From an uncultured Pelagibacteraceae bacterium (GTDB lineage: Bacteria > Pseudomonadota > Alphaproteobacteria > Pelagibacterales > AG-422-B15): a stretch of DNA of 64,000 nucleotides. Location of the stretch: positions 64,361 through 128,360 of the forward strand of contig CABZLP010000001.1 of NCBI GenBank assembly GCA_902526565.1, written 5' to 3'. The position numbers were made by a program, and so were the translations under genes. Positions 3,809-64,000 of the stretch are shown in pieces. The notes below the pieces were generated by a model. That model was not told the DNA's origin and did not search any database. It saw only the letters and a program-made list of their open reading frames with translations. Every line of letters begins with the position of its first letter. Within the stretch, counting starts at the first letter, position 1.

Positions 3809-3810
3809 CT

Positions 3811-18335: not shown

Positions 18336-18340
18336 ATAAG

Positions 18341-40511: not shown

Positions 40512-41198
40512 TACTTCATTTTTAAACGACAATTTATCCAGGCTCTCTTTCTTTGACTCAGTAATAATTTTTCCTCTTTTCATGACATAGATATAATCTG
40601 CTAAATCAAATGCAAAATCAAAATATTGCTCAACTAATAGTATGGTCATTCCCTGCTCATCTTTTAAATATTTTATGACTTCTCCAATTTGCTGGATGAT
40701 GTTTGGCTGTATCCCTTCGGTTGGTTCATCCATAAGTAGTAATTTTGGTTTTGAAATCATTGCTCTTGCAATTGCTAATTGCTGTTGTTGACCTCCTGAT
40801 AAATCTCCACCTCTTCTATTTATCATTTTTTTCAATACTGGAAAAAGATCGAAAATTTCGTCAGGTATGAAATGTTCATCACGTTTTAAACATGCAAAAC
40901 CAGTTTCTAAATTCTCTTTTACAGATAATAATGGAAATATAAAACGGCCTTGAGGAACATACCCTACTCCTCTCTTAGCAAGTTGGTGGGAACTAAAGTT
41001 AGTTACATTATCCCCTTCAAAAAGATAATTTCCTGACTTTGAAGGATAAATTCCTGATAAAAACTTTAATAAAGATGTTTTACCAACTCCATTTGAACCC
41101 ATTAAACAAGTAATTTCTTTATTTTTCGCTTTGAGTGAAACGTCAAATAATATCTGAGAAGAACCATAGTAAAAATTCAAATTACTTATATCAATCAT
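40503..41198 (-). CDS. urtE: Urea ABC transporter ATP-binding subunit
   Basis: 231 aa with GSNGVGKTS, LSGGQQQ and LLMDEP motifs. It is the last gene of the urt operon and overlaps ptrB convergently by 9 nt. Confidence 0.85.
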   Translation of the reverse strand: MIDISNLNFYYGSSQILFDVSLKAKNKEITCLMGSNGVGKTSLLKFLSGIYPSKSGNYLFEGDNVTNFSSHQLAKRGVGYVPQGRFIFPLLSVKENLETGFACLKRDEHFIPDEIFDLFPVLKKMINRRGGDLSGGQQQQLAIARAMISKPKLLLMDEPTEGIQPNIIQQIGEVIKYLKDEQGMTILLVEQYFDFAFDLADYIYVMKRGKIITESKKESLDKLSFKNEVSI

Positions 41199-41200
41199 GA

Positions 41201-41983
41201 CTATCTTCCTAGATATACCTCAATTACTTCATTATTAGAGGACACGTGTTCTATAGAACCCTCTGAAAGAATTGAACCTTCATGCAATACAGTAACCTCA
41301 CATTCAAGATCTTTTACAAATTCCATATCATGCTCAACAACAATAACTGATTTATCTGCAGATAATTTTTTTAGAATCTCAACTGTCTGTCTTCTTTCAT
41401 TAGAAGTCATTCCAGCTGCTGGTTCATCAATTAATAATAGCTTTGGTTCTTGAGTTAATAGCATTCCTATTTCTAACCACTGCTTTTGACCGTGTGATAA
41501 CTCACCAGCAATTCTATCTTGTTCATTTTTAAGACTAATTTCACCTAGTATTTTTTCTATTAGATTTTTTTCATCTCTATTTAATTTTTGGAATAAAACA
41601 CTGAAAGGACTTCTATTTTTCTTCATGGATATAAATAAATTTTCGAATACTGTTTTTAGCTCAAATACAGTAGGACGTTGAAATTTTCTTCCTATACCTA
41701 TTAATGCTATTTGAGACTCACTTTTCATTAGAAGATTTTCATCCCAAACGACTTGATATCTTTGATCACTTTCAAGCCATACGCTTCGTTCACCAAATAA
41801 TACTTTACCTTCGTCTGGTTTAGTTTGGCCCGTAATTATATCCATAAAGGTAGTTTTTCCAGCTCCATTAGGTCCAATAATCGCTTTAAGTTCATTTTTA
41901 CCAATGCTGTAACTCAAACTATTAATAGCTTTAAAGCCATCAAATGAAACCGAGATTTTTTCAACTTTCAATAAAGTATTCAT
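41201..41983 (-). CDS. urtD: Urea ABC transporter ATP-binding subunit
   Basis: 260 aa with VSFDGFKAIN, GPNGAGKTT and LSHGQKQ motifs. Confidence 0.85.
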   Translation of the reverse strand: MNTLLKVEKISVSFDGFKAINSLSYSIGKNELKAIIGPNGAGKTTFMDIITGQTKPDEGKVLFGERSVWLESDQRYQVVWDENLLMKSESQIALIGIGRKFQRPTVFELKTVFENLFISMKKNRSPFSVLFQKLNRDEKNLIEKILGEISLKNEQDRIAGELSHGQKQWLEIGMLLTQEPKLLLIDEPAAGMTSNERRQTVEILKKLSADKSVIVVEHDMEFVKDLECEVTVLHEGSILSEGSIEHVSSNNEVIEVYLGR

Positions 41984-50886: not shown

Positions 50887-51503
50887 ATAATTTTCGAGGT
50901 CCATTAAAAATTGGTATCGGCGGCCCTGTAGGTGCGGGTAAAACAAGTCTTACTGAGGCTTTGTGCAAAAATTTATCTAAAAATATTTCAATGGCAGTTA
51001 TATCGAATGATATTTACACAATTGAAGATGCCGAGTATTTAATGAGAGCTCAAGTTTTACCAATTGAGAGAATTAAAGGCGTCGAAACAGGTGGATGCCC
51101 TCATACCGCAATTCGAGAAGATGCTTCGATTAACCTCTTGGCTGTAGAAGAAATGAAACAAAAATTTCCTGATTTACAGTTGCTATTGATTGAGTCAGGT
51201 GGAGATAATTTGGCTGCAACGTTTAGTCCGGAGTTGGTAGATTTATCAATCTATGTGATTGATGTTGGAATGGGAGGTGATATTCCTCGTAAAGGTGGAC
51301 CAGCAATAAAAAAATCTGATTTACTAATCATCAATAAAACCGATTTAGCAAATTATGTAAATGTTGATTTAGATCAAATGAAATTAGATGTTGAAACTGC
51401 CCGATCAGGCATGCCTTATATTTTTGGTGAAATGAAGAATAATAAGGGAATAGAAAATATTGCTGAATTTCTCAAAACTGAGGGCGGTCTTGAAATAAAC
51501 TAA
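50883..51503 (+). CDS. ureG: Urease accessory GTPase UreG
   Basis: ATG 50883 overlaps the ureF stop (ATGA) and gives [21 protein letters not shown], followed by ETGGCPH and ESGGDNL. Confidence 0.93.
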
Positions 51504-53605
51504 AACCCACTTTCCTGAATGAGTATTGAGGTAGTTGCATTAAATATATTTTGAAAAATATTATAATTTTCAGAATCTATTTTTACAGATCCGGCAGTCT
51601 GCCATTGGAAATCTTTCGGATTCTCTGAAGAAGAAAAATTTAATTGATAAAGAGCATTTTCTGGTCTCTGAACCTGTTTCTTTCCAAGTATCTCTCTTGA
51701 TGCAATTGTGCCTCCATAAGTTGAGGTCAAAGCCAAATACGGCAACTCTTCGGTTGAAGTTTCATTTGATGATACTAATTCGACTTTGACTTTCGCAAAT
51801 TCATTATTTTTTGCATGAAAGTAACCGCTTGAAACTTTTTTTATTTTATTAAGATCCGTCTCACTAACAAAAGCTATCACTTGCACTTCTTCTGACTGAA
51901 CAATTGAAAATAGCTTATCTTTTTTATTTACCCATTGATTAGCGTTTAGACTTTTCAAATCTTTTATTATACCATCAGATGGCGCATAAATTGATAATGC
52001 TTTATTCTCTTCTTTCAATGAATTCAAAATTTCAATCTCCTTTTGTAACTCATTCTCAAGTATTAATAGATTGCTAAGATCAAGCTTTGATCCCACTCTA
52101 CGATCAAGTTTTTGCTGTATCATTTTCACACGGTCAATTGCTTTTTCGACTTTATTAGAAATCAATGGGTTCGCCATAATAACTAGCAAATCACCTTCAG
52201 CTACGTATTGATCATGCGAAATAAAAACCTTTCTAATCCTTGAATCTTCAGAGGCAAAAATATCAAGAACAACACCTTCTTCAATAACTGCTGGCAAACT
52301 AAGGGATGTACGCCATGGAACAAGCATAGCAAACATAAACACTGCAAATAAGATGATTGACCTCATAGAAGATCTATTGAATTTCATAGATTTTCTAAGC
52401 TTCCACCATTCAATGACTTCTCTGGCAATCGGCAATAAAATGAACCATAGAATTTCTACTATAAATAAAATAATTCCTAATATTTTAAATGTTAAATAAT
52501 AAACCAATAACGCAATACCAATAAAAATGAAGAAACGATAAATCCACGTAGCCCATGCGTAAATTATGAAAGTCCACCTTCTGTTAGCAATCAACTGTTC
52601 AGGTGGTTGAAATTTAAAACCAAAAAGCCACTCTCTTATCTGCCATCGACCTAAAGCAAATGAACGTGGTTGCAAATTTTCAGCTTTAAGGAAGTCAGAT
52701 AGCACATAATAGCCATCAAACCTCATGAAAGGACTTATGTTTATCAATAAAGATGAAATCCAGCTTGATGTAGCAATGAAAAAAGCTGCACTTTTCATTA
52801 TGCCTTCAGGAAATACAGCCCATGCAAATGTAGCAATCAAGGCTAGGTGTAGTTCAGTTAACATACCTGCAAAATTTATTAGTAAACGTTTTCTGTGGTC
52901 AGTGAGTTTCCAGGCATCGGAGGTATCTGTATATAAAAACGGAAAGAAAACCAACATAGCTAAGCCAATTGATGAAACTTTACACTTATAATATGTAGCT
53001 ACGTATGCATGACCCAACTCATGTAAAGCTTTTACAAAAACAATTGTAATTCCAAATAAGATCAAACCATTAATGTTGTAGAAATATGAAAAGGTTGAAA
53101 GAAATTTTTCATAATTAGTTATTGTCAAAAATATTCCGATTAAACCTAACCCATAAATAATACGTCTGACTGATAATGAGCTTAAAAACAAGGCAATGGG
53201 TAAACTTCTTTGAAGCCAAGTAACAGGTCTTACTAACGGTATTTTGAAAAATAGATAATTGTGAATAAGTTTAAGCAGCCAATGTTTATTGGTTTTATTT
53301 TTTTGAACTACTAAAGATTTAACTTCTTCACTTGTCTTTTTGATAGTTAAATTGTTTTGATCAAGAAAGTTTATGAACTCACTTATTTCTTCTTTAGTTA
53401 CTAATAATTTCGTTTCATTAATTTTTTTTATGAAATCTTCTAATTGAGATCCACTTGACCAATTATTTAAGAGATCAAAAGCATTTTTGTTTATCGAAAA
53501 ATATTTATTTCTCAAAGAGTCATATAGAAGCCATGATGAAGAGCCGTCCTCTTTTCGGGGGCCTTCGCTCAATTTTAAATCTTGTCTAAGATATGGGACA
53601 ATCAT
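51500..53605 (-). CDS. Fusion protein: PqqD/RRE-like N-domain, site-2-protease (M50)-like polytopic membrane domain and HlyD-type membrane-fusion domain
   Basis: HELGH lies at aa 195-199 (nt 53009-53023) and [10 protein letters not shown] at aa 289-298 (nt 52712-52741), matching the S2P motifs HExxH and NxxPxxxxDG. The C-terminal ~260 aa has lipoyl-like halves flanking a coiled coil ([12 protein letters not shown] ... [12 protein letters not shown]). Confidence 0.7.
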
Positions 53606-54949
53606 TTAAAATCCTAAAAACTGTCTCGTGAGATTTATAGGAACACGAAATATGTAATAAAAAATACTGGTCTTTGCGCCATAAATCTTAGCGGTACCGC
53701 GTAAACCTATCCTTGGAACCTCACCTTGACTGTCATGATAATTAGCAATGATCTTATAAGCTAAAATATTCTCAGATGTAAGTGCGGGTTTATATGAAGT
53801 ACGCAATACCTTACCGTCTAAAGAATTGAGAGGGTCACTATCTAAAAAAACTTTTACTCTGGCTTCTTTCTTAATCAAAAGAGAGTCTTTAGTAGGCAGG
53901 AAGATTTGAAATTCAATTTGTTCAGGATCAGCTATGGTTAATATTTTTTCTCCAATGTTAACTGGCTTCCCTTGCCAATCAGTAAAGTCTTCAACGACAG
54001 CTATACCTTCTCTGTCTGCAAAGATGATTGAGTATTTCAATTGTTCTTCTGCATATTCTGCTTCTTTTTTTCTCAAACCTACTTCTGTTGATAGTTCAAC
54101 TAAACGAGCTTTGTCATCTGAATTTGTAAATGATGACTGCTTGATGCGTAAAAGCTCTGCTTCTGCTACTTCAAGCTCTTGAAGCGCAATTTCATACTGG
54201 TTTTTAAAATTTAAATCATCCAATCTGACAAGTTCTGTCCCTGTCTTTACGTTTTCATTAGTCTTAATTAAAACTTCTTTTACCACGCCATTTACTGGTG
54301 AAGTCACAATGGTTGGATCTTTCGCAACTACTTCAACGGGCGCTAAAGCTGTCATACTAATTGGAAAAAACATTACTGCCGTTACAGAGGCAATCACTGC
54401 CCATTTAATCCATCCAGTAAACAAACGGTTGATATTTGAAATAATTATATTTTTTGACCTGAACGAGTTCAGTGCATGACTAAAGGTTTCTGAAATATGA
54501 AGTAAAAGATCTTTTTCAGAGTTGCTGATAACTTCTGATCTAACCATGACTAGATACCCAACATTTTTTTCAATCCACGAACGAAGAGGAACGAATATTA
54601 AATGTTTAGGAAAATTATCAGGAGTAATAAGATTTAACTCTTTTATAGAAGTATCGTTGAGATTAAATTCCGAAATATCATCAAAGCTGATCAGATCTTT
54701 TTTATTTATTAATGTTTCAACAAAAGTAACAGTTGGAGCTGTTCTATCGATAATTGATAGGTCAGAAATAGTATGTACTTTTAATCGATTTATACTTGAT
54801 CTATTGAGAAGAAATAAAAAATTATAATCAACTATGCTTCGCAATTCATTAGCGCAAATGAAAGCAAGCTCAGTTTCAGTTTCTGCATTACGAAACTTTT
54901 TCTCAAGCGTTATCAGTCGCGCAATTTTTATAGAGGAATTATCATTCAA
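53606..54949 (-). CDS. HlyD-family membrane-fusion protein with a ~170-aa cytoplasmic N-terminal domain (GAF-like?)
   Basis: Has a single TM segment (WIKWAVIASVTAVMFFPISM), then VTSPVNGVVKEVLIKTNENVKTGTELVRLDD, a coiled coil, and IFADREGIAVV...GEKILTIADP. The TTG start overlaps the upstream stop (TTGA), and its own stop abuts the next ATG. Confidence 0.7.
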   Translation of the reverse strand: MNDNSSIKIARLITLEKKFRNAETETELAFICANELRSIVDYNFLFLLNRSSINRLKVHTISDLSIIDRTAPTVTFVETLINKKDLISFDDISEFNLNDTSIKELNLITPDNFPKHLIFVPLRSWIEKNVGYLVMVRSEVISNSEKDLLLHISETFSHALNSFRSKNIIISNINRLFTGWIKWAVIASVTAVMFFPISMTALAPVEVVAKDPTIVTSPVNGVVKEVLIKTNENVKTGTELVRLDDLNFKNQYEIALQELEVAEAELLRIKQSSFTNSDDKARLVELSTEVGLRKKEAEYAEEQLKYSIIFADREGIAVVEDFTDWQGKPVNIGEKILTIADPEQIEFQIFLPTKDSLLIKKEARVKVFLDSDPLNSLDGKVLRTSYKPALTSENILAYKIIANYHDSQGEVPRIGLRGTAKIYGAKTSIFYYIFRVPINLTRQFLGF

Positions 54950-55665
54950 AATGTTGCCGTCCCACTCATTCCAGGAAGTAATGTTTCATAATTTTCATCA
55001 AATTTTGCAGTAGCGTCAATAGTTTGACTTACTGGATCAATATTCGCCCCCAAGGTATTCACTGTAGCACTATATATTGAACCATTTTCATCAATAACAA
55101 TACTTAATGGGTGGCCCTCAGACAACCATGCCAACCATTTACTTGAAATCATAAGTTTTGCTTCCAATATTCCAGAGCCAATGATTTGAATCATCGGTTG
55201 CTGCCTTTCAATGCTTTCATATTCATTCACAAATACTTTGGACATTGTTCCATCATAGGGAGCACGAATAATGCAACGATCTGTATTAAGCTGAGCAATT
55301 TTCAACTCTGACTTAGCCCTATCTACTGCAATTTGTGACAATTGAACTTCATACTCTCCAATGGATCTCATCGTTGCAAGTTCTTGATTGCTCTTCAAGG
55401 TTACGATGGCACTTTCTAACTCCGCTTGTACTACATCTTTTTGGGCTTCAAAAAAAGAACAATCCAACTTAATTAATATATCTGATTTTTTAAAATTAGC
55501 ACCTTCTGCAAATGGAATAGATTCAACTTTTGAGGCAAGTTCGCTTGATATTGTTGCCTCTTCAGTTGCCGTTACCAAAACACGAGTTGAATATTCTTCA
55601 GCTAGTAAATTAAATGGAAAAAGTACGCTGCAAGCAATAACTGCAAATGTTACAATATTATTCAT
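54946..55665 (-). CDS. Small periplasmic membrane-fusion (biotinyl-lipoyl/HlyD-like) protein with a signal peptide
   Basis: 239 aa with an N-terminal signal or anchor, then ISSELASKVESIPFAEGANFKKSDILIKLD, a short coiled coil, and IIRAPYDGTMSKVFV. Confidence 0.65.
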   Translation of the reverse strand: MNNIVTFAVIACSVLFPFNLLAEEYSTRVLVTATEEATISSELASKVESIPFAEGANFKKSDILIKLDCSFFEAQKDVVQAELESAIVTLKSNQELATMRSIGEYEVQLSQIAVDRAKSELKIAQLNTDRCIIRAPYDGTMSKVFVNEYESIERQQPMIQIIGSGILEAKLMISSKWLAWLSEGHPLSIVIDENGSIYSATVNTLGANIDPVSQTIDATAKFDENYETLLPGMSGTATF

Positions 55666-55675
55666 ATGGTTTTTA

Positions 55676-58600
55676 TTAGCTTACTAGAGATATAATCTTT
55701 TCACCATAGCTATCCGCTCTTTTGGCATGTAGCTTTAATTGCTCATCAAGTGGAATAAAAGAAATTTCGTCATCTAATGCCGAATTTTCATCATCTGTCT
55801 CAGCACCTGTTATTTCGTTAAGATCAATTTCAACTTCAATAATTCTTTCTTTTCCGTCTTCGTCTTCAGCAATAATCTTTAGTTCAAGTACTTGAAGACT
55901 ATCTGTTAAGAATGAGGGAGCTGCTGACCCTGTTCGACCTTTAGATGGGTCAGCTGCTATTTTTCCTGTTTGAGGATCAATAGAAATCCAATCTGGAAGT
56001 TCACCGCCACCTTTTAGCTCAGCTTTATACATTTTTACATTCGATTGATTGTTATCAATTACATCTAATGTGTATTGGCCTGCATCCATTTGAAGATTGC
56101 TTAACTTCATTGTACCTTCAAAATCTGTTTGAGAATTCAAGTTATTATTTATTGTTTGATTAGATGAATTGTTGTTCTCTCTGATCAAGTTTACGTTTGC
56201 GTCATTATCAACAACGATATTAGTTTGGCCAACAGTACCGCGAGTGAAGTCTTTATCATTCTTGATTTTAGCTTTGTCTAAAATAATGTTTATATCACGA
56301 GTATTTCCATCTTTATCTAATGCAACAAGTTGAACTTCTACCTGATCAATTCCATCTGGCATTTCTGCAGTTGTCTCACCTGTTTCAGGATTAACTTTAA
56401 TCCATTCAGGCAATGATTTTCCATCGGATAATTGTCCTGAATATAATTCAACATTCTTTTGGTTATCGTCGTTTAATTTAACGCCTACAGCTAAATCAGT
56501 GTTATCATCACCCGATACCTCGCTCGCAACTGCATCCATCAATCTCAAGCCACCATTAAACTTAAGTGGCTTAGATAGGGATGCGGTATCTGCAATTGAA
56601 ATAGTATCAAGAGTAAAGCCATCATCATCGATAATATTTACTTCATTAATATATTCCTGCATTTTTCCTGGCTTTACTTTAATTGGTTTAGTTGGCTCAA
56701 GAGTACCTTGTGGTTCTGGTTCATTAGGTTCTGGTGGGAGCGTGATAACATTTGGAATTACTTTAATGGTAAAGGTATGATCTGTATAAAGTCCTGCGCC
56801 GTCAATAGCTCTTATTGTGATTGTATAAATACCCGGTGTATCAATACTTCCATTGAGTTTTTTATCTTTTAGTTGGAGACCATCAGGTAAACTTGTTTCA
56901 GCATCAGTTTCAGGGTCAATAATTTTGTATTCAGCAATATCATAAATACCACTATCTGGATCGTCAAAAATCTGTCTATGCCTCAGGAATATTTTTTGAC
57001 CAGTAACATATGTTGGAAGATTTACGGGAGCTACTACCTCAGGTGGATCATTGATGCCAGTCACAGTGATGGCTATCTGAGCTTCTACAGGCGTTTCTCC
57101 ATCTGTTGCGGTATATGTGAAGTACTCCGTCTTAGTTTCACCAGGGTTTAGAGATTTTGCATTATTAGCCTTGTATTCATAGCTGCCATCGGAATTTATA
57201 GTTAAGTCACCATACGTTCCTGTTAGGGGTGATCCAATTGTCCCAGGTGTCCCCGTTCCAGCTTCTTCTCCTGTTCGTATTGTATTTACAGTTAAACTGT
57301 CACCATCAGGGTCTGTATCATTCTTCAATACTCCTTTTGAAGCATCTTTTACTCCTGTCGCACCTGCATCGATTTCTATAGTATCATCTTTTGGTACTGG
57401 CGGATCACTTTTACCAGTAACAGTTATCGCAATCACACCAATGTCTTCATTTGTTCCATCTGTTACAGTATAGTTGAAATATTCTATTTTGCTCTCGCCT
57501 CTTTTAAGCGCATCTGCTGCAGCCTGATCAGCAACATAACTATAGCTTCCATCAGCATTAAGAGTAAGAGTACCGTAAGTTCCTACAAGTCCTGAACCAA
57601 GTGTACCTGGGTCACCACCGCCTTCTGATTGCCCAAGTCTAATTCCAGAAATTGTTAATGACTCACCGTCTGCATCAGTATCGTCTGCGTTAAGTGCAAA
57701 TGTTGTATTAGCCGCTCTCGTAATTGTCTCACCTTTAGGAACAGTATCAGTATCGTCAACCGCTACAGGATCATTATCGTTTATTCCTGTTACTGTGAAT
57801 GTAAGATTTGCTGTTGACGTAGCCGTTCCATCACTCACCGTATACGTAAATGTATCTGCCCCAGTTTGACCTGTAACGAGTTGATCTGATTTTGTTTGAT
57901 CAGCAACATAAGTGTACGACCCATTCGCATTCACTGTCAGAGTTCCATACTCGCCTGTTAATGAAGCCCCTACTGTACCGGTCGCACCTGTGCCATCCTT
58001 TGATCCCGTTCTGATGCCAGTTATTGTAAAGTTTCCACTCGTATCATCCCCATCAACATCCGTATCGTCATGATCTAATTCTTGAGTGTCACTTACTGTT
58101 CGACTAATGGTTGCATCCTCATTAACACTATCTGTGTCATCAACGGCAACGATTGGGTCGTTTGCCCCATTTATGGTTACTGTAAGTGTTGCAGTGGATG
58201 AGTTTTTATCATCATCGTCCTTTACGGTGTATGTGAATATTTCAGAAACAGAGTCACCTGCATCTAAGGCTTCAGCTGCAGCTGTATTCGCTATGTATGT
58301 ATAACTTCCATCAGCTGCTACTGTTAATGTTCCGTAAGTACCTAAAACTCCAGCTCCTGCTACACCACTATTGCTTGTACCGTTTGACGAAACATTGGTA
58401 ACCGCAAGACTTTCCGTATCTCCACCAGTATCGTTTGTTAATACTCCACCTGCTGTATTAACTGTCAATGTCTGACTTTCAGTGGCAGTAGCTGTGTCTG
58501 CTGAACCGACAGGACCTACACCTGTTACAGTTATAACCAAATTTGCCGTATCGGTTGTTCCAGCGCCATCACTTACGGTATAAGTGAATGTATCGGTTGC

Positions 58601-61600
58601 AGTTGCACCATGAGCTAACCCGTCAGCACCACTGGTATTGGCAGTATATACATAGCTACCATCAGAAGCGAGCGTAAGGGTACCGTATGTTCCTGTTAAC
58701 TCTTGACCGACTGTCCCTCCATTGACTCCTGAAACAGTTAAACTTGAACTTGCATCAGCATCAGTATCATTAGATAAAACACCACTGCCAGCACTTATTG
58801 ATATTTGCGCATCCTCATTAACAGCGCCTGTATCATTTACTCCAACAGGGTCGTCATCAATACCTTTTACGGTGAAGGTTATAGTTGCTGTGTCTGTTCC
58901 AGTTCCATCAGTTACTGTGTATGTGAACGTATCTGTTGCAATATCTCCTGCATCAAGAGCATTAGCATTGTTAGCATTATAAACGAAGCTACCATTGCTT
59001 TGTATTGTTAATTGACCATACGTTCCAGAGACTGCATTTCCGAGAGTGCCTCCTGCTATCGCAGAAACTGTTAGAGGGTCATTATCTGGATCAGTATCAT
59101 TAAGGAGAACATCTCCTGAATGATCTCCACTTTCGTTATTATTATTACTATCTGTTCCTGTTACTGCAGATGTGCCGTCAGTAACTTGAAGCTGAGAGTC
59201 CTCAAGGATATATCCTGTGTCATTATTTCCTGTGGGAGGAACCACAGTAGTTCCAGTTACTGTTATTGCTAGTTGTCCTGTATCAGTATCACCAGCTTGA
59301 TCTGTTACAGTATATGTAAAGTAATCAACGACAGTTGCGTCATTAGCCAGACTAAGCGCATCAGGTCGATTGGCAGCGTAACTATACGATCCGTCTGCGT
59401 TGATCGTGACTGTTCCGTATGTTGTTGTAAATTCTTGGCCAAGAGTTTTTGTATCGCCACTACCTGTCTTTTGTCCAGTTCGTATCGCTGTAATAGTAAG
59501 ACTACCTGGAACATCATCAGCGTCTGCATCTGTATCGTCTTGATCAAGCTCTTGTGCATCGCTTGTACCTCTTGAGATTGATGCACCAGCATTTACCGCA
59601 TCAGTATCATTAACAGCAGTAATATCATCGTTAATTCCAGTCACCGTAATAGTTAATGTTGCAGTACTTGCATTTTTATCGGCATCATCTTTAAGAGTGT
59701 ATGTAAATACATCAGTAACTTGATCACCAGGATCAAGGGCATCAGCTGCTGATTGGTTGGCAACATATTCATAGCTACCATCAGCCGCCATGGTTAATTC
59801 ACCATAAGTTCCAGTAACAGCTTGTGCAGCATTACCACTATTCCCAGTAACGCCGTGAGTTATGCCAGTTATAGCTAAACTTTCAACATCGTAGCTTGCA
59901 TTGTCATCATCATTACTGATTACACCAGATGCTTCATTTACTGTTAAAGTAGCATCTTCATTGACTGAACCAGTATCAGCAACAGCTTGAGGGCCTACAC
60001 CTTTTACAGTGATGACTAAATCTGCTGTATCAGTTGTTCCAGCGCCATCACTTACGGTATAAGTGAATGTATCGGTTGCCGTAGCATCAGCAGCGAGACC
60101 ATCCTCACTTCTACCATTTGCAACATAAGTATAACTACCATCTGAACTCAAAGTCAGAACACCATAGGTTCCATTTACTTCTTGACCAACTGTGCCACCC
60201 GAAATTGAAGACACTGTGAGACTTGAACTAGCATCAGCATCAGTATCATTTGATAATACTCCACTTCCCGTGCTGACAGTAAGGGTTTTATCCTCGTTGA
60301 TTGCACCTGCATCATTATTGCCAACTGGATTATCATCGACTCCGTTAACAGTGATTGTTAGGGTTGCTGTGCTTGAATTTACATCATCATCATCTTTAAC
60401 TGTGTAAGTGAAGACATCAGTTTCAGAGTCACCGGCATCTAAGGCTTCAGCTGCAGCTGTGTTCGCCGTATAAGTATAAGTACCATCAGCTGCAACGGTC
60501 AGAGTACCATATGTACCTAAAACACCTTGAGTGGCGTTCCCACTATTCCCTGTAGAGTCTGAGGTAATATTTGTAACAGCTAAACTCTCACTATCATAAG
60601 CGGCATTATCATCATCATTTGCCAGAACACCAGTTGAAGAAGCATTATTGGCGTCTAGTGATGCATTTTCATTTACTGAAGCCGTATCGTTTACTCCTAA
60701 AGGTCCAACACCCGTAACTGTAATTGCAAGTTCAGCAGTATCTGTATCGTTTGGACTGCTTGTGTGATCTCTCACTGTATAGGTAAAGTAATCAATCGCA
60801 GATACGCCTGCCGCTAACGCGTCTGCCCCACTTCTGGTTGCAGCATAGCTATAGCTACCATCTGCAGCTACAGTTAATTCACCATAAGTACCATTTAGAG
60901 CCTGACCTATTGTGCCCGCTGTTGTTCCACTAGTTGCAGACTCTCTTCCTGTTCTGATTGCCGTGATTGTAAAACTGCCGGATACATCATCGTCATCAAC
61001 ATCTGTATCATCGTGATCTAACTCCTGAGAGTCTGAAGTACTTCTATTTATTGTTTTATCTTCAAATACGGAGTCGGTATCGTTTGCAGCGATAATAGGA
61101 TCGTTCACTCCTGTGATTGTTATTGTCAGCGTTGCGGTATCTGTAGCGGTTTGGTCAGTTACTGTGTATGTAAATGTATCTGTTACTGTATCACCAGGAT
61201 CTAGTTCGTCAGCTGCATCTTTATTTGCATTGTATGTATAGCTACCATCTGCACTCATAGTTAGCTGTCCATAGGTGCCATCTAGAGCGGATCCAAGAGA
61301 TCCACCGGATATTGCACTTACTTCAAGCGAATCTCCGTCAGCATCTGTATCGTTTGCTAAAACTCCGCTGCCAGCAGTTACTGAAACGCTAGCATCCTCA
61401 TTAACGGCTCCTGTGTCGTTGTTACCAACTGGAGCTTCGTTTGCAACTGGAGCCCTGGTAATGATACGAATAAAGTCACCTTTCTCACCATTTTTAGTTC
61501 CAATTCTGATAGTCTTGTTGCTATTTGAAATTTCAAACCAGTCTCCATTCCCCTCTTGACCAGGAGCATTGTCATTATTGTACTCTAAGTCCCTCTTACC

Positions 61601-62704
61601 AATTTTATCAGAGCTCATTGTTGGATAAGTCCCACCAGCCATTGAAACCCCGGACATCGCAATCGTATTTTGTGGCAATGCAAACACACCAAGTATTTCA
61701 TAATCAAAAGTTACTTGACCTACTCGGCTACCAGTTCGTCTAGAGTTACCATTAGTTTCATCGTTAGAGAAAAGTAAATACACATGTACAGGCTCACTCG
61801 TACTTGGTGTATGTGAACTCTTTGCTCCAGAGACATCAAAGTTTAAGGTCCCTGTACCGCTATTAACATCTGCTCTTTCTTGGACAATTATAAATCGATC
61901 TGAAGAAGAGTCCTGTACTCCATTATTATTAGTGCTATCGCCAGAAACTTGTGCCCTAAAGTTGGTTGCAGAAGAAGAAAGGTTAACAATACTTGAGTTA
62001 ATAGAAGTTATATCGTTAGCAAGCGAATAATCATAATTTTCAACATCAATATTTTTTGTCTCGATGATACCTGTATGTTTCTCCAAATCCCAGTCGCCGC
62101 CTTTACCAGTCACATCATCTGATGCTGCTACATCTGCATCCGTAATTTCAGCAATTTGTTTAATTAAAATTTCACCACTTAGATCCGCCGCTACGTTACA
62201 ACCATAAAATAAAATATCTCCATTTTCTGAAAGACTGGTTCCAATTTCTTGGAGAATATTTTCATAAGCATTCAATGTGTCACTGTTTAACACAGCTGTG
62301 CCAAATGCAATCTGTCCTATACTTCCGTGACCAATGACGTGAACCGCATCAATATTTTCTTGAGAAGATAAAATATTTTGCATGGTAACAAATCCATCTT
62401 GATCACTTTGTATGACATGCACTTCAGTATTTTTATCGAAACTATTAATGAGAGTTTCAATATCTTCAACTGTACTATCAATAAATATAAACTGTCTTAA
62501 TTTTGCATTTTGAGTTGACGCATCTAAATTTACAAAAGGTAACTTTGTGTCTTTATCAACTTTGAAGTGATCAGCTTTAGATGACTTATCATTATCTGAC
62601 TTTTGAAACTGAGCTAGATCATCAACCACATCAATTGCAGTTGCTACTGCAGCACCGTCCAGCATAAGACGGGGTTCCAAGGCCTGAATAAGTTTATTGC
62701 TCAT
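55676..62704 (-). CDS. Giant (2342 aa) secreted/surface repeat protein: DUF4347 N-domain, 12 VCBS/cadherin-like repeats and C-terminal dystroglycan-type cadherin-like (CADG/He_PIG-like) domains
   Basis: The N-terminus reads ...LEPRLMLDGAAVATA.., followed by a DUF4347-like ~200 aa (HVIGHGSIGQIAFG, LFYGCNVAA). Twelve units carry NDTDADGD.L...GTYG.LT...DGSY.Y......D.FTYTV.D....TATLTITV.G.ND. C-terminal units carry LPDGL / LPEWIKVNPETG / LPDWISIDPQTG. Confidence 0.85.
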   Translation of the reverse strand: MSNKLIQALEPRLMLDGAAVATAIDVVDDLAQFQKSDNDKSSKADHFKVDKDTKLPFVNLDASTQNAKLRQFIFIDSTVEDIETLINSFDKNTEVHVIQSDQDGFVTMQNILSSQENIDAVHVIGHGSIGQIAFGTAVLNSDTLNAYENILQEIGTSLSENGDILFYGCNVAADLSGEILIKQIAEITDADVAASDDVTGKGGDWDLEKHTGIIETKNIDVENYDYSLANDITSINSSIVNLSSSATNFRAQVSGDSTNNNGVQDSSSDRFIIVQERADVNSGTGTLNFDVSGAKSSHTPSTSEPVHVYLLFSNDETNGNSRRTGSRVGQVTFDYEILGVFALPQNTIAMSGVSMAGGTYPTMSSDKIGKRDLEYNNDNAPGQEGNGDWFEISNSNKTIRIGTKNGEKGDFIRIITRAPVANEAPVGNNDTGAVNEDASVSVTAGSGVLANDTDADGDSLEVSAISGGSLGSALDGTYGQLTMSADGSYTYNANKDAADELDPGDTVTDTFTYTVTDQTATDTATLTITITGVNDPIIAANDTDSVFEDKTINRSTSDSQELDHDDTDVDDDDVSGSFTITAIRTGRESATSGTTAGTIGQALNGTYGELTVAADGSYSYAATRSGADALAAGVSAIDYFTYTVRDHTSSPNDTDTAELAITVTGVGPLGVNDTASVNENASLDANNASSTGVLANDDDNAAYDSESLAVTNITSDSTGNSGNATQGVLGTYGTLTVAADGTYTYTANTAAAEALDAGDSETDVFTYTVKDDDDVNSSTATLTITVNGVDDNPVGNNDAGAINEDKTLTVSTGSGVLSNDTDADASSSLTVSSISGGTVGQEVNGTYGVLTLSSDGSYTYVANGRSEDGLAADATATDTFTYTVSDGAGTTDTADLVITVKGVGPQAVADTGSVNEDATLTVNEASGVISNDDDNASYDVESLAITGITHGVTGNSGNAAQAVTGTYGELTMAADGSYEYVANQSAADALDPGDQVTDVFTYTLKDDADKNASTATLTITVTGINDDITAVNDTDAVNAGASISRGTSDAQELDQDDTDADADDVPGSLTITAIRTGQKTGSGDTKTLGQEFTTTYGTVTINADGSYSYAANRPDALSLANDATVVDYFTYTVTDQAGDTDTGQLAITVTGTTVVPPTGNNDTGYILEDSQLQVTDGTSAVTGTDSNNNNESGDHSGDVLLNDTDPDNDPLTVSAIAGGTLGNAVSGTYGQLTIQSNGSFVYNANNANALDAGDIATDTFTYTVTDGTGTDTATITFTVKGIDDDPVGVNDTGAVNEDAQISISAGSGVLSNDTDADASSSLTVSGVNGGTVGQELTGTYGTLTLASDGSYVYTANTSGADGLAHGATATDTFTYTVSDGAGTTDTANLVITVTGVGPVGSADTATATESQTLTVNTAGGVLTNDTGGDTESLAVTNVSSNGTSNSGVAGAGVLGTYGTLTVAADGSYTYIANTAAAEALDAGDSVSEIFTYTVKDDDDKNSSTATLTVTINGANDPIVAVDDTDSVNEDATISRTVSDTQELDHDDTDVDGDDTSGNFTITGIRTGSKDGTGATGTVGASLTGEYGTLTVNANGSYTYVADQTKSDQLVTGQTGADTFTYTVSDGTATSTANLTFTVTGINDNDPVAVDDTDTVPKGETITRAANTTFALNADDTDADGESLTISGIRLGQSEGGGDPGTLGSGLVGTYGTLTLNADGSYSYVADQAAADALKRGESKIEYFNYTVTDGTNEDIGVIAITVTGKSDPPVPKDDTIEIDAGATGVKDASKGVLKNDTDPDGDSLTVNTIRTGEEAGTGTPGTIGSPLTGTYGDLTINSDGSYEYKANNAKSLNPGETKTEYFTYTATDGETPVEAQIAITVTGINDPPEVVAPVNLPTYVTGQKIFLRHRQIFDDPDSGIYDIAEYKIIDPETDAETSLPDGLQLKDKKLNGSIDTPGIYTITIRAIDGAGLYTDHTFTIKVIPNVITLPPEPNEPEPQGTLEPTKPIKVKPGKMQEYINEVNIIDDDGFTLDTISIADTASLSKPLKFNGGLRLMDAVASEVSGDDNTDLAVGVKLNDDNQKNVELYSGQLSDGKSLPEWIKVNPETGETTAEMPDGIDQVEVQLVALDKDGNTRDINIILDKAKIKNDKDFTRGTVGQTNIVVDNDANVNLIRENNNSSNQTINNNLNSQTDFEGTMKLSNLQMDAGQYTLDVIDNNQSNVKMYKAELKGGGELPDWISIDPQTGKIAADPSKGRTGSAAPSFLTDSLQVLELKIIAEDEDGKERIIEVEIDLNEITGAETDDENSALDDEISFIPLDEQLKLHAKRADSYGEKIISLVS
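57050..61450 (-). repeat. In-frame tandem array of 12 divergent ~113-131-codon VCBS-type repeats (three subtypes)
   Basis: The protein repeats were counted by hand. At the DNA level there are exact repeats, for example an identical 47-mer at 58554-58600 and 60033-60079, and an identical 25-mer at 58261-58285 and 60436-60460. Confidence 0.8.
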
Positions 62705-62890
62705 TTATATATATAATTTTTCGCACTAGTATGATTATTGGCATTTAGCCTTTTCTTTATACATGACTAAAATTCTAAAGGTACTCTCATAAGCTAAAAT
62801 TACCCATTTTGGGCAAATTTTTTTTAGAGTTTTGAGCCATTTGTCTATATTCCCTTCTCATAACAACTAGTAAACAGATATCCTTAATTG

Positions 62891-64000
62891 ATGAGAATAA
62901 TCAATACAAAAATAATTATATTTTTACTATTCATCGCACTCAGTGCCTGCGCTCGAACACCAAATGTTATCGATGCAGAAAAATTAAATGTAAGTGTTCA
63001 AAAAGATTTATCTTTGCTTGCAGTGGAGGCACCTCTAGAAAACATAGACCTGCACACAGCAATTGCTATTGGGATTAAAAACAACCGTGACTTAAGAATA
63101 AGTGTTATGGAGTCAGCATTAGCTCAAAGGCAAAGTGATCTTCAACGATTTGATATGCTGCCTGATATTGCACTCAATGCTGGATACTCTGAGTTTAATG
63201 AATTGCAACCATCAACAAGTGTTGGCGTCGATAATGATATAGGAGATGCACCGGCATTAGATGGAACACAGTCTTATACAATTTCAAGAGATAAGGGTTT
63301 GGAAACTAGAAACATTGAATTTACTTGGAATGCACTTGACTTTGGTTTGTCCTACATTCGCGCTGGACAACAAGCGGATCGTTATTTAATTGCTAAAGAA
63401 CTTGAGAGAAAAGCAACTCAGAATATTACACGAGACATCATTCGTGCTTACTGGAAAGCACAAGCTTCGGAAAATCTCTTAAAAAAATTGAATCCTCTTC
63501 TAGAACGAGTTGAAACTGCTCTTGCAGACTCAAAATATATTGAAGAACTTCTCATATCTGCGCCTATGGACTCGTTGCTTTATCAAAAAGAATTACTTGA
63601 CGTACAGAGAACGCTACAAACTCAACAACGGGCATTAATAAATTCTAAAAATGAGCTTGCAATACTCATGGGATTACTGCCGGGGCAAAAGTTTAGTTTA
63701 TCAAGCGAAGACACTTACCTCACCAATATAAATATGCGTATAGAAACAATGGAAGAGATGGCTCTTGTTTCAAGACCTGAACTCATGGAAAGTCGATATC
63801 AAAAAAGAATTACCAGTAAGGATACTAAAGCAGCTATTTTAGGTTTGATCCCTAGTATAAAATTCAATGCCACGTATGGATATTCTGATAATGAATATTT
63901 ATTAAACCAAGATACAACAGAATACGGTGCGTCAATTGGGGCTAATCTTTTTAACGTATTTTCTTTTGGTGCCGTAAGAAAATCATCTGAAGCAAGTAAG
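62891..64000 (+). CDS. TolC/NodT-family outer-membrane efflux lipoprotein (N-terminal 370 aa; runs off the window edge)
   Basis: Not in the ORF track because it is truncated. My translation gives MRIINTKIIIFLLFIALSACARTP... (lipobox LSAC), then LHTAIAIGIKNNRDLR, LPDIALNAGYS and SRPELMESRYQ, typical of outer-membrane factor proteins. Confidence 0.8.
   Translation, partial: MRIINTKIIIFLLFIALSACARTPNVIDAEKLNVSVQKDLSLLAVEAPLENIDLHTAIAIGIKNNRDLRISVMESALAQRQSDLQRFDMLPDIALNAGYSEFNELQPSTSVGVDNDIGDAPALDGTQSYTISRDKGLETRNIEFTWNALDFGLSYIRAGQQADRYLIAKELERKATQNITRDIIRAYWKAQASENLLKKLNPLLERVETALADSKYIEELLISAPMDSLLYQKELLDVQRTLQTQQRALINSKNELAILMGLLPGQKFSLSSEDTYLTNINMRIETMEEMALVSRPELMESRYQKRITSKDTKAAILGLIPSIKFNATYGYSDNEYLLNQDTTEYGASIGANLFNVFSFGAVRKSSEASK

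Follow-up and report, generated by a model that had tools for sequence, protein, structure and literature searches.

A five-gene SAR11 module as a candidate export and processing machine for a giant repeat protein, with a metalloprotease-adaptor fusion and no linked ABC transporter

Five genes at one end of a SAR11 window (the whole analysed stretch of DNA, 64 kb) probably make up a dedicated machine that exports and processes a giant protein by way of a leader; it is similar to a T1SS but has no ABC transporter, and its mechanism is inferred. In the same joint reading, held with the same confidence, the inner-membrane partner would be a fusion of an M50 metalloprotease with an adaptor, together with a GAF-adaptor, instead of an ABC, RND or MFS transporter. 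The same gene set was observed in more than 100 independent loci, therefore an association by chance is excluded. No curated family or paper describing the module was found in family databases or in the literature, and the module looks like an undescribed route for exporting giant proteins. An undescribed envelope-spanning system exporting or processing the giant had been proposed by a sequence-only reading of this DNA; this was supported by the co-occurrence of the genes despite their shuffled order, by a plasmid-borne cassette and by a conserved LE[PQS]R motif.

Four minus-strand genes of the locus are tightly packed, while the gene of a TolC-family lipoprotein is divergent from them. The features and the evidence for them are listed below.

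62891..64000, plus strand: gene of a TolC/NodT-family outer-membrane factor lipoprotein (OEP match, lipobox)
62705..62890, no strand: divergent intergenic region, 186 bp, presumed promoter region of both transcription units
55676..62704, minus strand: giant cargo protein, 2342 aa (ORF, Pfam and NCBIfam domains)
62648..62683, minus strand: N-terminal LEPR-type motif A-L-E-P-R-L-M-L-D-G-A-A, aa 8-19 of the giant protein (weak NF012209 LEPR-XLL match)
62051..62488, minus strand: DUF4347 domain, aa 73-218 (PF14252, E 3.5e-48)
57035..61447, minus strand: ~12 bacterial cadherin-like/VCBS repeats, approx. aa 420-1890 (Cadherin_4, Big_9, TIGR01965)
55679..55768, minus strand: conserved extreme C-terminal segment ...SFIPLDEQLKLHAKRADSYGEKIISLVS (motif comparison of cargo C-termini)
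54946..55665, minus strand: 239-aa periplasmic adaptor, MFP (ORF, HlyD_3/HlyD_D23)
53606..54949, minus strand: 447-aa GAF-TM-adaptor, TTG start (ORF, HlyD_3)
51500..53605, minus strand: 701-aa PqqD-like/M50-protease/adaptor fusion (ORF, Peptidase_M50, HlyD_3, HlyD_D23)
53348..53539, minus strand: PqqD-like (RRE-type) putative peptide-binding domain, aa 23-86 of the fusion (weak direct matches and hhalign)
53009..53023, minus strand: HELGH zinc-binding/catalytic motif, aa 195-199 (family alignment)
52712..52741, minus strand: second M50 motif, aa 289-298, including Asp297 as the third zinc ligand (family alignment)
51764..52309, minus strand: C-terminal adaptor part (lipoyl/hairpin/beta-barrel), aa 433-614 (HlyD_D23 at aa 448-590, HlyD_3 at aa 539-614)

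By base-by-base reading, 10 nt (TAAAAACCAT) separate the TAA stop of the giant gene from the ATG of the 239-aa gene; the stop of the latter and the TTG start of the 447-aa gene share a TTGA overlap, and the TAA stop of the 447-aa gene abuts the ATG of the 701-aa gene (gap 0 nt). All coordinates and spacings of this packing, as given in the sequence-only reading, were verified, and the divergent lipobox-bearing outer-membrane gene was confirmed at 186 bp, with L-S-A-C present. A consensus scan of the intergenic region found one small hairpin (62800-62816) and no promoter enrichment.

The giant protein is very acidic, with 373 D+E versus 113 K+R residues and a single Cys by composition count; GGxGxD motifs or RTX repeats were not found in a sequence scan. 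Its LEPR-type motif follows a short basic stretch and lies within a weak match to the LEPR-XLL model (NF012209) covering aa 6-25, in a part of the protein (aa 1-66) that AF2 modelled with low confidence. We inspected cargo N-termini from SAR11, Gamma- and Alphaproteobacteria, Nitrospira, a sister clade with a SecA-linked operon (described below) and an E. coli plasmid. The pattern LE[PQS]RxLFDGA followed by DUF4347 was present in every cargo with a visible N-terminus, and we propose the motif to be a leader or recognition tag of the cargo. The repeats matched Cadherin_4 in 12 stretches (E 2.8e-140), as well as Big_9 and the VCBS model TIGR01965. At the extreme C-terminus, an amphipathic segment has the motif F-x-P-L-x-[DE]-Q-L ... 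Y-G ... with a hydrophobic end. The full motif was seen in 16 of the 29 cargo C-termini (SAR11, Gammaproteobacteria, Campylobacterota) and a looser F-x-x-Q-L core in most of the remaining ones; on the E. coli plasmid it was degenerate.

Going by structural modelling, DUF4347 may be a Cys protease of clan CD (caspase/CPD-like), with the pair His126 and Cys169. Residues H126, G168 and C169 were invariant (n=54 sequences), and pLDDT was mostly 86-98 in the core of the AF2 model. The best Foldseek match of this model was 9qpe_G (Tce1), followed by caspases and legumain; Tce1 is a putative Cys protease likened to the TcdB CPD (PMC13323088). As in the MARTX/TcdB CPDs and the T6SS effector Tce1 (PA0256, DUF4347; PDB 9qpe), the invariant His-Cys pair of the module comes after consecutive beta strands. 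In the module, however, DUF4347 is neither a toxin nor a T6SS cargo: it follows the LEPR leader as the N-terminal part of a giant repeat protein.

The 701-aa protein scored 37.5 bits with Peptidase_M50 (cut-off 27.2). Its other matches were to the daptide HExxH model NF041824 (E 2e-37; 129 bits versus a 300-bit cut-off) and to the PqqD-related model NF050069, while the closest curated match of a homologue was YydH/LiaK (NF058609), below the family cut-off. The family has 2595 clusters at 50% identity (E<=1e-30); of the best 150 matches, almost all were ~700 aa long and aligned over essentially the full length. Sequence comparisons point to a PqqD-like (RRE-type) cytoplasmic domain at the N-terminus: the profile of this region aligned with that of the sister-clade domain with an hhalign probability of 95.6% (E 1.3e-8), and Pfam PqqD was matched by 9/9 sister-clade domains (best E 1.3e-6), the first member being above the cut-off. 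In the HELGH motif, H195, E196, G198 and H199 were invariant across the compared homologues (A1 and A6); in the second motif N289, P292, R295, D297 and G298 were invariant, the SecA-linked clade included. Hydropathy and positive-inside loops place HExxH at the inner end of TM2 and NxxPxxxxDG at the inner end of TM4, with seven predicted TM segments if aa 208-226 are taken as a re-entrant loop. This predicted topology would turn the M50 active site towards the cytoplasm, in agreement with general knowledge of the S2P family. Dependence on an N-terminal leader, along with processing, had also been proposed, and the conserved cargo motif, the intact M50 site and the PqqD-like domain agree with it.

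All three proteins encoded downstream of the giant gene matched HlyD_3/HlyD_D23. The 239-aa adaptor scored 105.9 bits with RND_mfp (TIGR01730, cut-off 94.9) and has a signal-like N-terminal hydrophobic segment at aa 4-22 by hydropathy. In the 447-aa protein (HlyD_3 E 3e-13), a GAF-like cytoplasmic domain (aa ~10-165) is followed by one TM (aa ~176-202) and a periplasmic adaptor domain. GAF was matched by 8/15 members of this family (best E 2.5e-5) and, with E 2.5e-10, by the L093 homologue; the PDB sequence matches of the N-domain were GAF domains. The families matched in the profile searches included DUF4347, VCBS, HlyD_3/HlyD_D23, Peptidase_M50 and PqqD-related, all of which the sequence-only reading had pointed to. 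The channel ORF (OEP E 1e-28; lipobox at aa 17-20, 62939-62950) exits the window after 370 aa, and ~620-640 aa are expected from full-length relatives. A C-terminal He_PIG Ig-like domain was seen in one SAR11-type and one Marinobacter relative of the channel.

Tripartite efflux pumps (RND, ABC, MFS) likewise combine an outer-membrane factor lipoprotein with lipoyl/hairpin/beta-barrel adaptors and may have more than one adaptor species per operon; TriABC-OpmH, for example, has two different adaptors. Unlike these pumps, the module is genetically tied to a protein cargo and has no RND, ABC or MFS transporter, the protease being its only polytopic inner-membrane component.

Besides SAR11, the module was found in other Alpha- and Gammaproteobacteria, Campylobacterota and Nitrospira, with the gene order shuffled. 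For the co-occurrence survey, 80 loci were fetched with the protease-adaptor as bait. The GAF-adaptor gene was directly upstream of the protease-adaptor gene in 72/72 loci, and a giant ORF was present in 41 of the 42 loci having at least 9 kb of upstream sequence; the co-occurrence of S2P-adaptor fusions with giants across phyla, for which a neighbourhood survey had been suggested, was borne out. Besides the SAR11 order, channel<->giant-239-447-S2P, we observed channel-239-giant-447-S2P, giant-channel-239-447-S2P, 239-447-S2P-giant-channel and channel-239-447-S2P-giant, five orders in total. Plasmids of E. coli, Citrobacter and Hafnia also carry the five genes as a cassette flanked by IS elements; among complete E. 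coli genomes, 24 of 5426 had it. One cyanobacterial DUF4347 protein without the LEPR leader, a leaderless control, had no trio nearby; as an exception, one Methylococcales LEPR/DUF4347 giant had no trio within 10 kb. Genes related to c-di-GMP were close to some loci.

No ABC exporter, RND or MFS gene was found in or next to the locus, as had been claimed from the sequence alone; in the window as a whole, ORFs of the ABC ATPase type were limited to two urea-ABC ATPases (40503-41983) and an ABC-2 pair (27837-29521). ABC proteins of at least 480 aa were encoded in 3/80 loci, and no ABC exporter occupied a conserved position in the 80 genome loci, 29 metagenome loci, and Azospirillum and E. coli plasmids. 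The fully read 69-kb E. coli plasmid had neither an ABC exporter nor a SecA-like gene among its 63 features. The earlier caveat that a canonical ABC+MFP pair could lie past position 64000 did not hold: in three relatives the channel gene was followed by a small ORF and then by unrelated housekeeping genes, with no T1SS-like genes.

A candidate energiser, added since to the earlier picture, came from the sister clade. There, a gene for a truncated SecA-like ATPase lies directly after the protease-adaptor gene in 26/26 metagenomic loci with upstream sequence. In all loci with downstream sequence the next gene encodes a ~280-aa adaptor, and in those that reach far enough a LEPR/DUF4347 giant comes after it. 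The ATPase has ~665 aa; its SecA model match ends at about profile position 600 of 789, and no SecA_SW match was found. A SecA-like gene was absent from the window and from the 80 Alpha/Gamma/Campylobacterota/Nitrospira loci. As in accessory SecA2 systems, the sister clade has an extra SecA paralogue that is dedicated to a specialised cargo and encoded together with it. The sister-clade paralogue differs in being truncated, in lacking a SecA_SW match, in being paired with M50-adaptor, GAF-adaptor and adaptor genes rather than with SecY2 or Asp proteins, and in being absent from the window's variant.

In the mechanism that we propose, the LE[PQS]RxLFDGA leader would be bound by the cytoplasmic PqqD-like domain, as RiPP recognition elements bind leader peptides, and cut by the M50 site at the predicted cytoplasmic face. 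The unfolded acidic chain would then be threaded N to C through a hetero-oligomeric three-adaptor tube and the outer-membrane channel. A SecA-type ATPase would supply the energy: in the sister clade its dedicated paralogue, in the SAR11 variant possibly the housekeeping SecA. Extracellular folding of the cadherin/VCBS repeats, dependent on Ca, may assist. The inner-membrane pore could be either SecYEG or the M50/adaptor assembly itself; M50 proteases are not known to serve as protein-conducting pores. The GAF domain would gate the machine on a cytoplasmic signal, and the putative Cys-protease domain (DUF4347) may act, along with the conserved segment at the C-terminus, in self-processing and in retention or docking.

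The colicin V system CvaAB-TolC consists of a peptidase-containing ABC transporter with an accessory adaptor and TolC. There, as proposed here, an N-terminal leader is recognised and cut by an exporter-borne protease, and an adaptor and TolC finish the route. On the other hand, the module protease is M50 rather than C39 and is fused to an adaptor rather than to an ABC transporter, while its cargo has thousands of residues and is not a peptide.

Against this leader-dependent machine, the cargo resembles a classical T1SS substrate (acidic, Cys-poor, with Ca-binding repeats and a conserved C-terminal segment of amphipathic character), a resemblance that would favour export driven by an ABC transporter and starting at the C-terminus. 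We consider it unlikely, however, that the locus belongs to a T1SS whose ABC transporter is encoded elsewhere, with the giant leaving C-terminus first via ABC, adaptor and TolC, and with the M50- and GAF-adaptors holding and later cutting the LEPR end at the inner membrane to control anchoring versus release. Such a T1SS would fit the adhesin-like composition of the cargo (very acidic, one Cys, cadherin/VCBS repeats), its conserved C-terminal end, the weak matches of the adaptors to the type_I_hlyD and bacteriocin_acc models, and a Vibrio LEPR-XLL giant reported with C-terminal RTX (PMC10868602). Still, no ABC exporter was found at a conserved position in any of the sets given above, the IS-flanked cassette comes without one on the 69-kb E. 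coli plasmid, the ATPase that joins the sister-clade operon is SecA-like rather than ABC, and the cargo has no RTX motifs. Also, ABC and MFP genes are normally adjacent in T1SS. Compared with the giant-adhesin T1SS (LapA-LapBCE with LapD/LapG; SiiE-SiiCDF; MpIBP), the module similarly encodes a TolC-family channel and HlyD-type adaptors next to a giant surface protein that is acidic, rich in repeats and without a signal peptide; it too has an adaptor with a cytoplasmic N-domain and a single TM, and a protease associated with the N-terminal end of the cargo. It differs by the absence of an ABC transporter and RTX repeats, by three different adaptors and by the conserved N-terminal LEPR leader.

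Less probable again is that the trio is not a translocon and acts as a LapD/LapG-like proteolytic switch for cell retention of an already exported adhesin, with GAF as the cytoplasmic sensor. A GAF sensor domain is indeed fused to a periplasmic domain, the complex includes a protease, the c-di-GMP genes near some loci would fit, and the Gly-Ala-Ala element of the leader recalls, by eye, the LapG di-alanine site. However, LapG is periplasmic, while in the module an adaptor is fused to an intramembrane M50 protease whose site is predicted at the cytoplasmic face; the module sensor is GAF, while LapD is a GGDEF/EAL receptor; and profile searches detected neither LapG (BTLCP) nor LapD-type domains. 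Three adaptors with a dedicated TolC-family channel amount to a conduit rather than a mere switch, a translocation ATPase joins them in the sister clade, and no other exporter for the signal-peptide-less giant is linked to the locus. The LapG/LapD analogy of the sequence-only reading was therefore weakened, while its processing and export reading was retained.

The module shares with the M50 RiPP leader peptidases (NF041824; YydH/LiaK NF058609), its best curated matches, a PqqD-like domain at the N-terminus ahead of an M50 membrane protease, but it scores well under their cut-offs, adds a C-terminal periplasmic adaptor domain and has a giant-protein partner in place of a precursor peptide, modification enzyme and ABC exporter. 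In spite of these matches and the PqqD-like domain, it is highly improbable that the giant gene merely neighbours a maturation and efflux system for small molecules or peptides (RiPP-like), made up of adaptors, protease and channel, as the ORFs of the locus include no precursor peptide or modification enzyme genes, the NF041824 score is far under its cut-off, and the link to LEPR/DUF4347 giants holds in four lineages of phylum level, in five gene orders and after plasmid transfer; a peptide maturation and export device that simply shares the operon, an alternative named in the sequence-only reading, conflicts with these co-occurrence data and was rejected.

The proposed export locus consists of four genes packed on the minus strand and of a divergent gene of the TolC/NodT family that runs past position 64000:

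55676..62704, minus strand: ORF of the giant protein, 2342 aa
54946..55665, minus strand: ORF of the small adaptor, 239 aa
53606..54949, minus strand: ORF of the GAF-adaptor, 447 aa, TTG start
51500..53605, minus strand: ORF of the protease-adaptor, 701 aa
from 62891, plus strand: channel ORF, first 370 aa in the window; OEP match (E 1e-28), lipobox LSAC

The packing and the gene spacings proposed in the sequence-only reading were confirmed by the ORF calls and by reading the junctions base by base: 10 nt lie between the TAA stop of the giant gene and the ATG of the 239-aa gene, which in turn shares TTGA with the 447-aa gene, whose TAA stop abuts the ATG of the 701-aa gene. The channel gene starts 186 bp from the start codon of the giant gene on the opposite strand, and its OEP match and LSAC lipobox identify it as the divergent, lipobox-bearing outer-membrane factor of that reading. 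Its domain calls on the five proteins also agree with Pfam and NCBIfam, which show in the giant DUF4347, 12 cadherin-like/VCBS units and, at aa 6-25, a weak match to LEPR-XLL; all three downstream proteins matched HlyD_3/HlyD_D23 in Pfam. Elsewhere the window carries housekeeping genes (IleRS, GroEL, HisRS, BipA, GGT, prolyl oligopeptidase, urea ABC importer, urease). The nearest genomes were GORG single-cell genomes of uncultured Pelagibacteraceae, where the 701-aa protein has 94-96% amino acid identity, and the window is accordingly assigned to a SAR11-type genome; an exact-sequence look-up of this protein returned no identical record.

The 701-aa protein scored 37.5 bits against PF02163 (Peptidase_M50; cut-off 27.2). 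Residues H195/E196/H199 of the HExxH motif and N289/P292/D297/G298 of the NxxPxxxxDG motif, which supplies the third zinc ligand, were invariant, even against the 20%-identical proteins of a sister clade of SecA-linked loci. From its sequence, the protein is a true member of the M50 (site-2 protease) family, and since these motifs are invariant, the protease is probably active. The topology predicted from hydropathy, the positive-inside rule for loops and what is generally known of S2P has a cytoplasmic N-domain, seven TMs (provided that aa 208-226 form a re-entrant loop), a periplasmic adaptor domain and both zinc motifs at the cytoplasmic face. Direct matches of the N-domain to PqqD were weak (NF050069, E 1.3e-4; Pfam PqqD in 2 of 20 members). 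In a profile-profile comparison it aligned with the sister-clade N-domain at 95.6% probability (E 1.3e-8), and the latter matched Pfam PqqD in 9 of 9 members. Under the RRE criterion the N-domain is, as judged from profiles, homologous to the PqqD family, with a putative role in peptide binding. The AF2 model of this domain (aa 1-135) was of low confidence (pLDDT 46), and a PDB sequence search with its profile gave no match. For the N-domain and the M50 part together, the best curated match was the daptide RiPP leader peptidase NF041824, at 129 bits versus a 300-bit cut-off.

In the 447-aa protein, a GAF-like N-domain precedes one TM (≈176-202) and an HlyD_3/HlyD_D23 adaptor domain. GAF profiles did not match the window protein itself; they matched 8 of 15 family members (best E 2.5e-5) and, above the cut-off, the homologue at the Desulfobacteraceae locus L093 (E 2.5e-10). 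Matches of the N-domain profile in PDB were GAF domains, with E from 0.005 to 0.2. The 239-aa protein is a periplasmic adaptor with a signal-like N-terminus.

We found more than 4300 homologues of the 701-aa fusion. The family counted 2595 cluster representatives (50% identity) at E<=1e-30, and among the best 150 of these nearly all were about 700 aa long and aligned over practically the full length. A genome scan, with one genome per species, produced at least 546 loci, the best 80 of which were mapped with our own ORF and phmmer pipeline. The GAF-adaptor gene was immediately 5' of the protease-adaptor gene in all 72 loci with enough sequence. Of the 42 loci whose upstream sequence extends for 9 kb or more, 41 have a giant repeat-protein ORF, 37 the small adaptor and 23 the channel; the missing adaptors and channels were mostly concealed behind giant genes exceeding the flank length. 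The giant can be as long as 6339-9101 aa in SAR11 Ia-type contigs. The following gene orders were observed, with S2P standing for the protease-adaptor and the other adaptors given by their length:

SAR11: channel<->giant-239-447-S2P
Marinobacterium, Colwellia, Marinobacter: channel-239-giant-447-S2P
Other Gammaproteobacteria: giant-channel-239-447-S2P
Hyphomicrobiaceae: 239-447-S2P-giant-channel
Nitrospira: channel-239-447-S2P-giant

Since the gene set is kept while its order varies, the association points to function rather than to inherited synteny. The co-occurrence of S2P-MFP fusions with DUF4347 giants and channel genes, a question raised by the sequence-only reading, extends across lineages and five gene orders. 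The module is also carried by plasmid p2 of Azospirillum argentinense Az39 and, as an IS-flanked cassette (order giant-TolC-adaptor-GAF-adaptor-S2P-adaptor), by plasmids of E. coli, Citrobacter and Hafnia. The E. coli cassette was detected in 24 of 5426 complete genomes, at least 99% identical; its genes bear generic RefSeq names such as 'HlyD family efflux transporter periplasmic adaptor subunit' and 'Ig-like domain-containing protein'.

Some genes recur beside the module. An Asp/Arg beta-hydroxylase adjoins it in P. putida (L090 5628-9954) and lies 3.5 kb from the channel gene in the SAR11 relative L006 (14925-15524). A GNAT acetyltransferase and tail-fibre/Collar-domain proteins are found both in P. 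putida and on Azospirillum Az39 p2 (L124 1-2843), and the P. putida module is further adjoined by a sulfotransferase and DUF6916. Such extra genes may encode cargo-modifying enzymes. Near the E. coli plasmid modules (L127 8006-9388 and 43149-43319; L125 28785-28982) we observed c-di-GMP genes, namely a diguanylate cyclase, an EAL fragment and a short 'diguanylate phosphodiesterase' CDS, and near the module of the sister-clade locus L094 (16959-20654) a His-kinase/Hpt/GGDEF/EAL set. These c-di-GMP genes hint at the signal that the GAF-adaptor might sense.

In the loci surveyed, no ABC exporter kept a conserved place beside the module. The window has no HlyB/PrtD/LapB-type ABC transporter with an adaptor; the ABC genes present are ATPases of importers, plus an ABC-2 pair at a distance of 22 kb. 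Among the operon proteins, neither Pfam nor NCBIfam gave a match to an RND, MFS, ABC or PET inner-membrane transporter. The claim that the export locus is without an ABC, RND or MFS pump thus held in both the operon searches and the ABC survey of the window. The sequence-only reading had cautioned that a canonical ABC+MFP pair might follow just past position 64000. This was rejected on the basis of three relatives on independent contigs, L006 (83% identical channel, 1.14-Mb contig), L008 and L009, in which the channel gene is divergent from the DUF4347 giant and is followed by a small ORF and then by unrelated housekeeping genes that differ per locus; beyond the channel gene none of the three has an ABC gene or an ABC/adaptor pair, and the main caveat was not borne out. 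ABC genes of at least 480 aa were found in 3 of the 80 mapped loci, at positions that were not conserved. The ABC genes near L052/L065 and L079 (one of 616 aa, ABC_membrane+ABC_tran, 3 kb away, and two half-transporters on the opposite strand) were rejected as components on these grounds. Adaptors can pair with ABC-2 pumps. The ABC-2 pair of the window (27837-29521) was rejected as a partner, being adjacent to the module, convergently, only in one SAR11 subclade and missing from other clades. We also found no ABC exporter in 29 SecA-linked metagenome loci, and neither an ABC exporter nor a SecA-like gene among the 63 features of a fully read 69-kb E. coli plasmid.

Full-length relatives of the channel are 620-640 aa long, with a C-terminal He_PIG Ig-like domain in one SAR11-type and one Marinobacter protein. 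The small ORF 3' of the channel gene in SAR11-type loci (L009 11842-12426, L008 11860-12475, L006 11491-12454) encodes in L009 a SPOR domain protein (E 1e-6) and is frameshifted in long-read assemblies. Its product might add to the module a sixth component that binds peptidoglycan.

A different ATPase was found in the sister clade, reached through DUF4347 proteins of other lineages. Locus L093 has a GAF-adaptor, a PqqD-M50-adaptor, a 670-aa SecA-like ATPase, an adaptor and a LEPR/DUF4347 giant; the second locus, L094, has the channel gene as well. The ATPase contains SecA_DEAD, SecA_PP_bind and P-loop_SecA domains and covers the SecA models to about position 600 of 789, with the wing/scaffold region missing. 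A metagenome scan with this ATPase as query gave 29 loci at 46-72% identity. The protease-adaptor was directly upstream of the SecA-like gene in all 26 loci with upstream sequence, with an 8-nt overlap in several; an adaptor followed wherever downstream sequence existed, and a leader-bearing giant wherever the contig reached far enough. In contrast, neither the window nor the 80 related loci had a SecA-like gene. Because the SecA-like gene is fixed beside the protease-adaptor in the sister clade, the motor joined to the machine in this branch is a SecA-type translocation ATPase and not an ABC transporter. The SAR11 variant might be powered by housekeeping SecA, by folding outside the cell or by something unseen. 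In L094 (930-5081) one 1383-aa ORF spans the M50-adaptor and SecA-like parts. It was not accepted as proof of a fusion, being a possible frameshift artefact of an error-prone long-read assembly; the giant gene of the same contig is fragmented.

Every giant with a visible N-terminus begins with a short basic stretch, followed by a LEPR-type motif, a low-confidence linker and DUF4347. Cargoes of the Alpha, Gamma and Nitrospira types and of the E. coli plasmid share the form [AL]-L-E-[PQS]-R-x-[LM]-[FL]-D-[GA]-A; in the sister clade the motif is E-L-E-[QP]-R-x-L-F-S-A-D. This N-terminus is not a Sec-type signal peptide. In the DUF4347 alignment (n=54), His126, Gly168 and Cys169 were invariant, and Cys169 is the sole cysteine among the 2342 residues. 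The AF2 model of DUF4347 (core pLDDT mostly 86-98) puts H126 after strand 118-124 and C169 after strand 158-167, the His/Cys-after-consecutive-strands arrangement of clan CD (caspase/CPD C80), and in this model the domain is a putative protease. A Foldseek search with the model listed the DUF4347 protein Tce1 (PDB 9qpe_G) at the top, then caspases-3/6/7/8 and legumain, with TM-scores of just 0.3-0.45 and Rossmann folds interspersed. For Tce1, a putative TcdB-CPD-like Cys-protease dyad was described in a 2026 paper (PMC13323088).

A leaderless DUF4347 protein of the cyanobacterium Dolichospermum (L092 8260-19444) had no adaptor trio nearby; the protein encoded next to it has 6126 aa and carries HemolysinCabind (RTX) repeats, and DUF4347 therefore occurs also in apparently classical T1SS-type settings. 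A Methylococcales giant did have the leader and lacked a trio within 10 kb, so the two need not be neighbours.

Substrates of T1SS carry an uncleaved C-terminal secretion signal, usually after RTX GGxGxD repeats. The giant, a highly acidic protein, lacks RTX motifs (no GGxGxD, no HemolysinCabind match). Over its last ≈30 residues it shares the pattern F-x-P-L-x-[DE]-Q-L ... Y-G ... hydrophobic end, which recurs in 16 of 29 cargoes of SAR11, Gammaproteobacteria and Campylobacterota; a looser form was seen in most of the remainder. This conserved C-terminus, together with the T1SS-like composition of the cargo, is what one would expect if the giant left by a T1SS whose ABC transporter is encoded elsewhere in the genome, but the self-contained plasmid cassette and the link to SecA make such an arrangement unlikely. 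The module does have an HlyD-type adaptor as in T1SS (cytoplasmic N-terminus, one TM, periplasmic domain), which is the 447-aa protein, and a TolC-family outer-membrane factor, whereas the dedicated ABC transporter is missing from the loci surveyed here. The engine that defines tripartite pumps (ABC/RND/MFS) is likewise absent from the operon, and by its gene content the module belongs neither to T1SS nor to these pumps. Another explanation, in which the trio serves only as a LapDG-like release switch for the giant, appears more doubtful still: unlike LapA/LapD/LapG systems, the module has no LapG (BTLCP) protease and no LapD GGDEF/EAL receptor, either in the five proteins or among their window neighbours. 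A merely co-located efflux or RiPP system is highly improbable, the 701-aa protein being excluded from the daptide (NF041824) and YydH/LiaK leader peptidase families by its score under the cut-off and by an ORF survey that found no precursor peptide or modification genes in the operon.

The best-supported reading, and in our judgement a probable one, is that of a dedicated, leader-dependent apparatus for export and processing of the giant. The sequence-only reading had put forward such a machine, and the co-occurrence, the motifs and the plasmid cassette speak for it. Beyond gene content, motifs and co-occurrence, we infer the mechanistic steps as follows. The PqqD-like domain would bind the LEPR leader, the M50 site would cleave it at the cytoplasmic face, and the chain would thread the tube of three adaptors and then the TolC-family channel, much as a T1SS/PCAT-type exporter works. 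The inner-membrane pore might be SecYEG or the M50/adaptor assembly itself, and the GAF domain may regulate the machine. More tentatively, the apparatus could represent an unrecognised diderm secretion pathway, with a LEPR-XLL leader, PqqD-like recognition, M50 cleavage and SecA-type drive (from a dedicated paralogue in one clade and, in SAR11, from housekeeping SecA or some other force), that moves its cargo in a single uninterrupted step through a three-adaptor tube and a TolC-family channel with no ABC transporter.

To our knowledge, no TolC-dependent export system has been described that lacks an ABC, RND, MFS or PET inner-membrane engine. Here, in a widespread family of at least 2595 clusters (50% identity), a protease-adaptor fusion stands where the engine would be, with a SecA-like motor in one branch. 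NCBIfam holds no specific model for the M50-adaptor fusion or the GAF-adaptor, and the literature searched on DUF4347, LEPR-XLL, the SAR11 giant protein, M50/site-2 protease with HlyD/adaptor, and SAR11_0932 contained no description of the module. The accessible portions of a 2021 Chem Rev review of tripartite systems mention no protease-fused or GAF-fused adaptors.

If the cargo is exported as the genetics suggest, the catalogue of bacterial secretion systems is incomplete. The orphan LEPR-XLL signature would gain a role and DUF4347 a working context, and the largest SAR11 protein would have an export route that is mobile on enterobacterial plasmids. SAR11 is the most abundant bacterium of the ocean, with a genome of ≈1.2-1.4 Mb; the pathway would explain how it handles a gene of up to 27 kb, which probably shapes the cell surface. 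Speculatively, that surface may matter for interactions with phages, grazers and particles. As the same cassette is present on E. coli plasmids, in Azospirillum and in P. putida, the question is open to test in tractable hosts.

Several features of the window stand apart from the export question. The giant gene (56000-62000) has 39-42% G+C compared to ≈33% around it, probably due to its Asp/Thr/Gly/Ala-rich repeats and not to foreign origin. Promoter and terminator scans gave sites no commoner than in shuffled sequence, and carry little information in an AT-rich genome. The sole terminator-like match in the divergent intergenic region (0.1 expected) is a hairpin at 62800-62816 with a 7-bp stem (TTGCCCAAAATGGGTAA, minus strand), ≈100 nt upstream of the giant start; it may act as an operator or as an element of the 5'-UTR. 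Adjacent tRNA-His and tRNA-Phe genes (18259-18416, minus strand) and a tRNA-Thr gene (38361-38434, plus strand) are unrelated to the proposed export locus.

In the SAR11 subclade with a 75%-identical protease-adaptor (L016-L018, L051), the ABC-2 pair directly adjoins that gene in convergent orientation. The ≈22-kb window segment 29500-51500 (DUF3604, BipA, GGT, prolyl oligopeptidase, urea ABC importer, urease) is missing there, which indicates an indel or island difference. At L001/L014 (AG-430-F17, 92% identical), a 422-aa Wzy_C (O-antigen ligase-like) gene lies at 3037-4305 between the protease-adaptor and ureG; the window is without this gene, and there the protease-adaptor and ureG overlap convergently by 4 nt (51500-51503).
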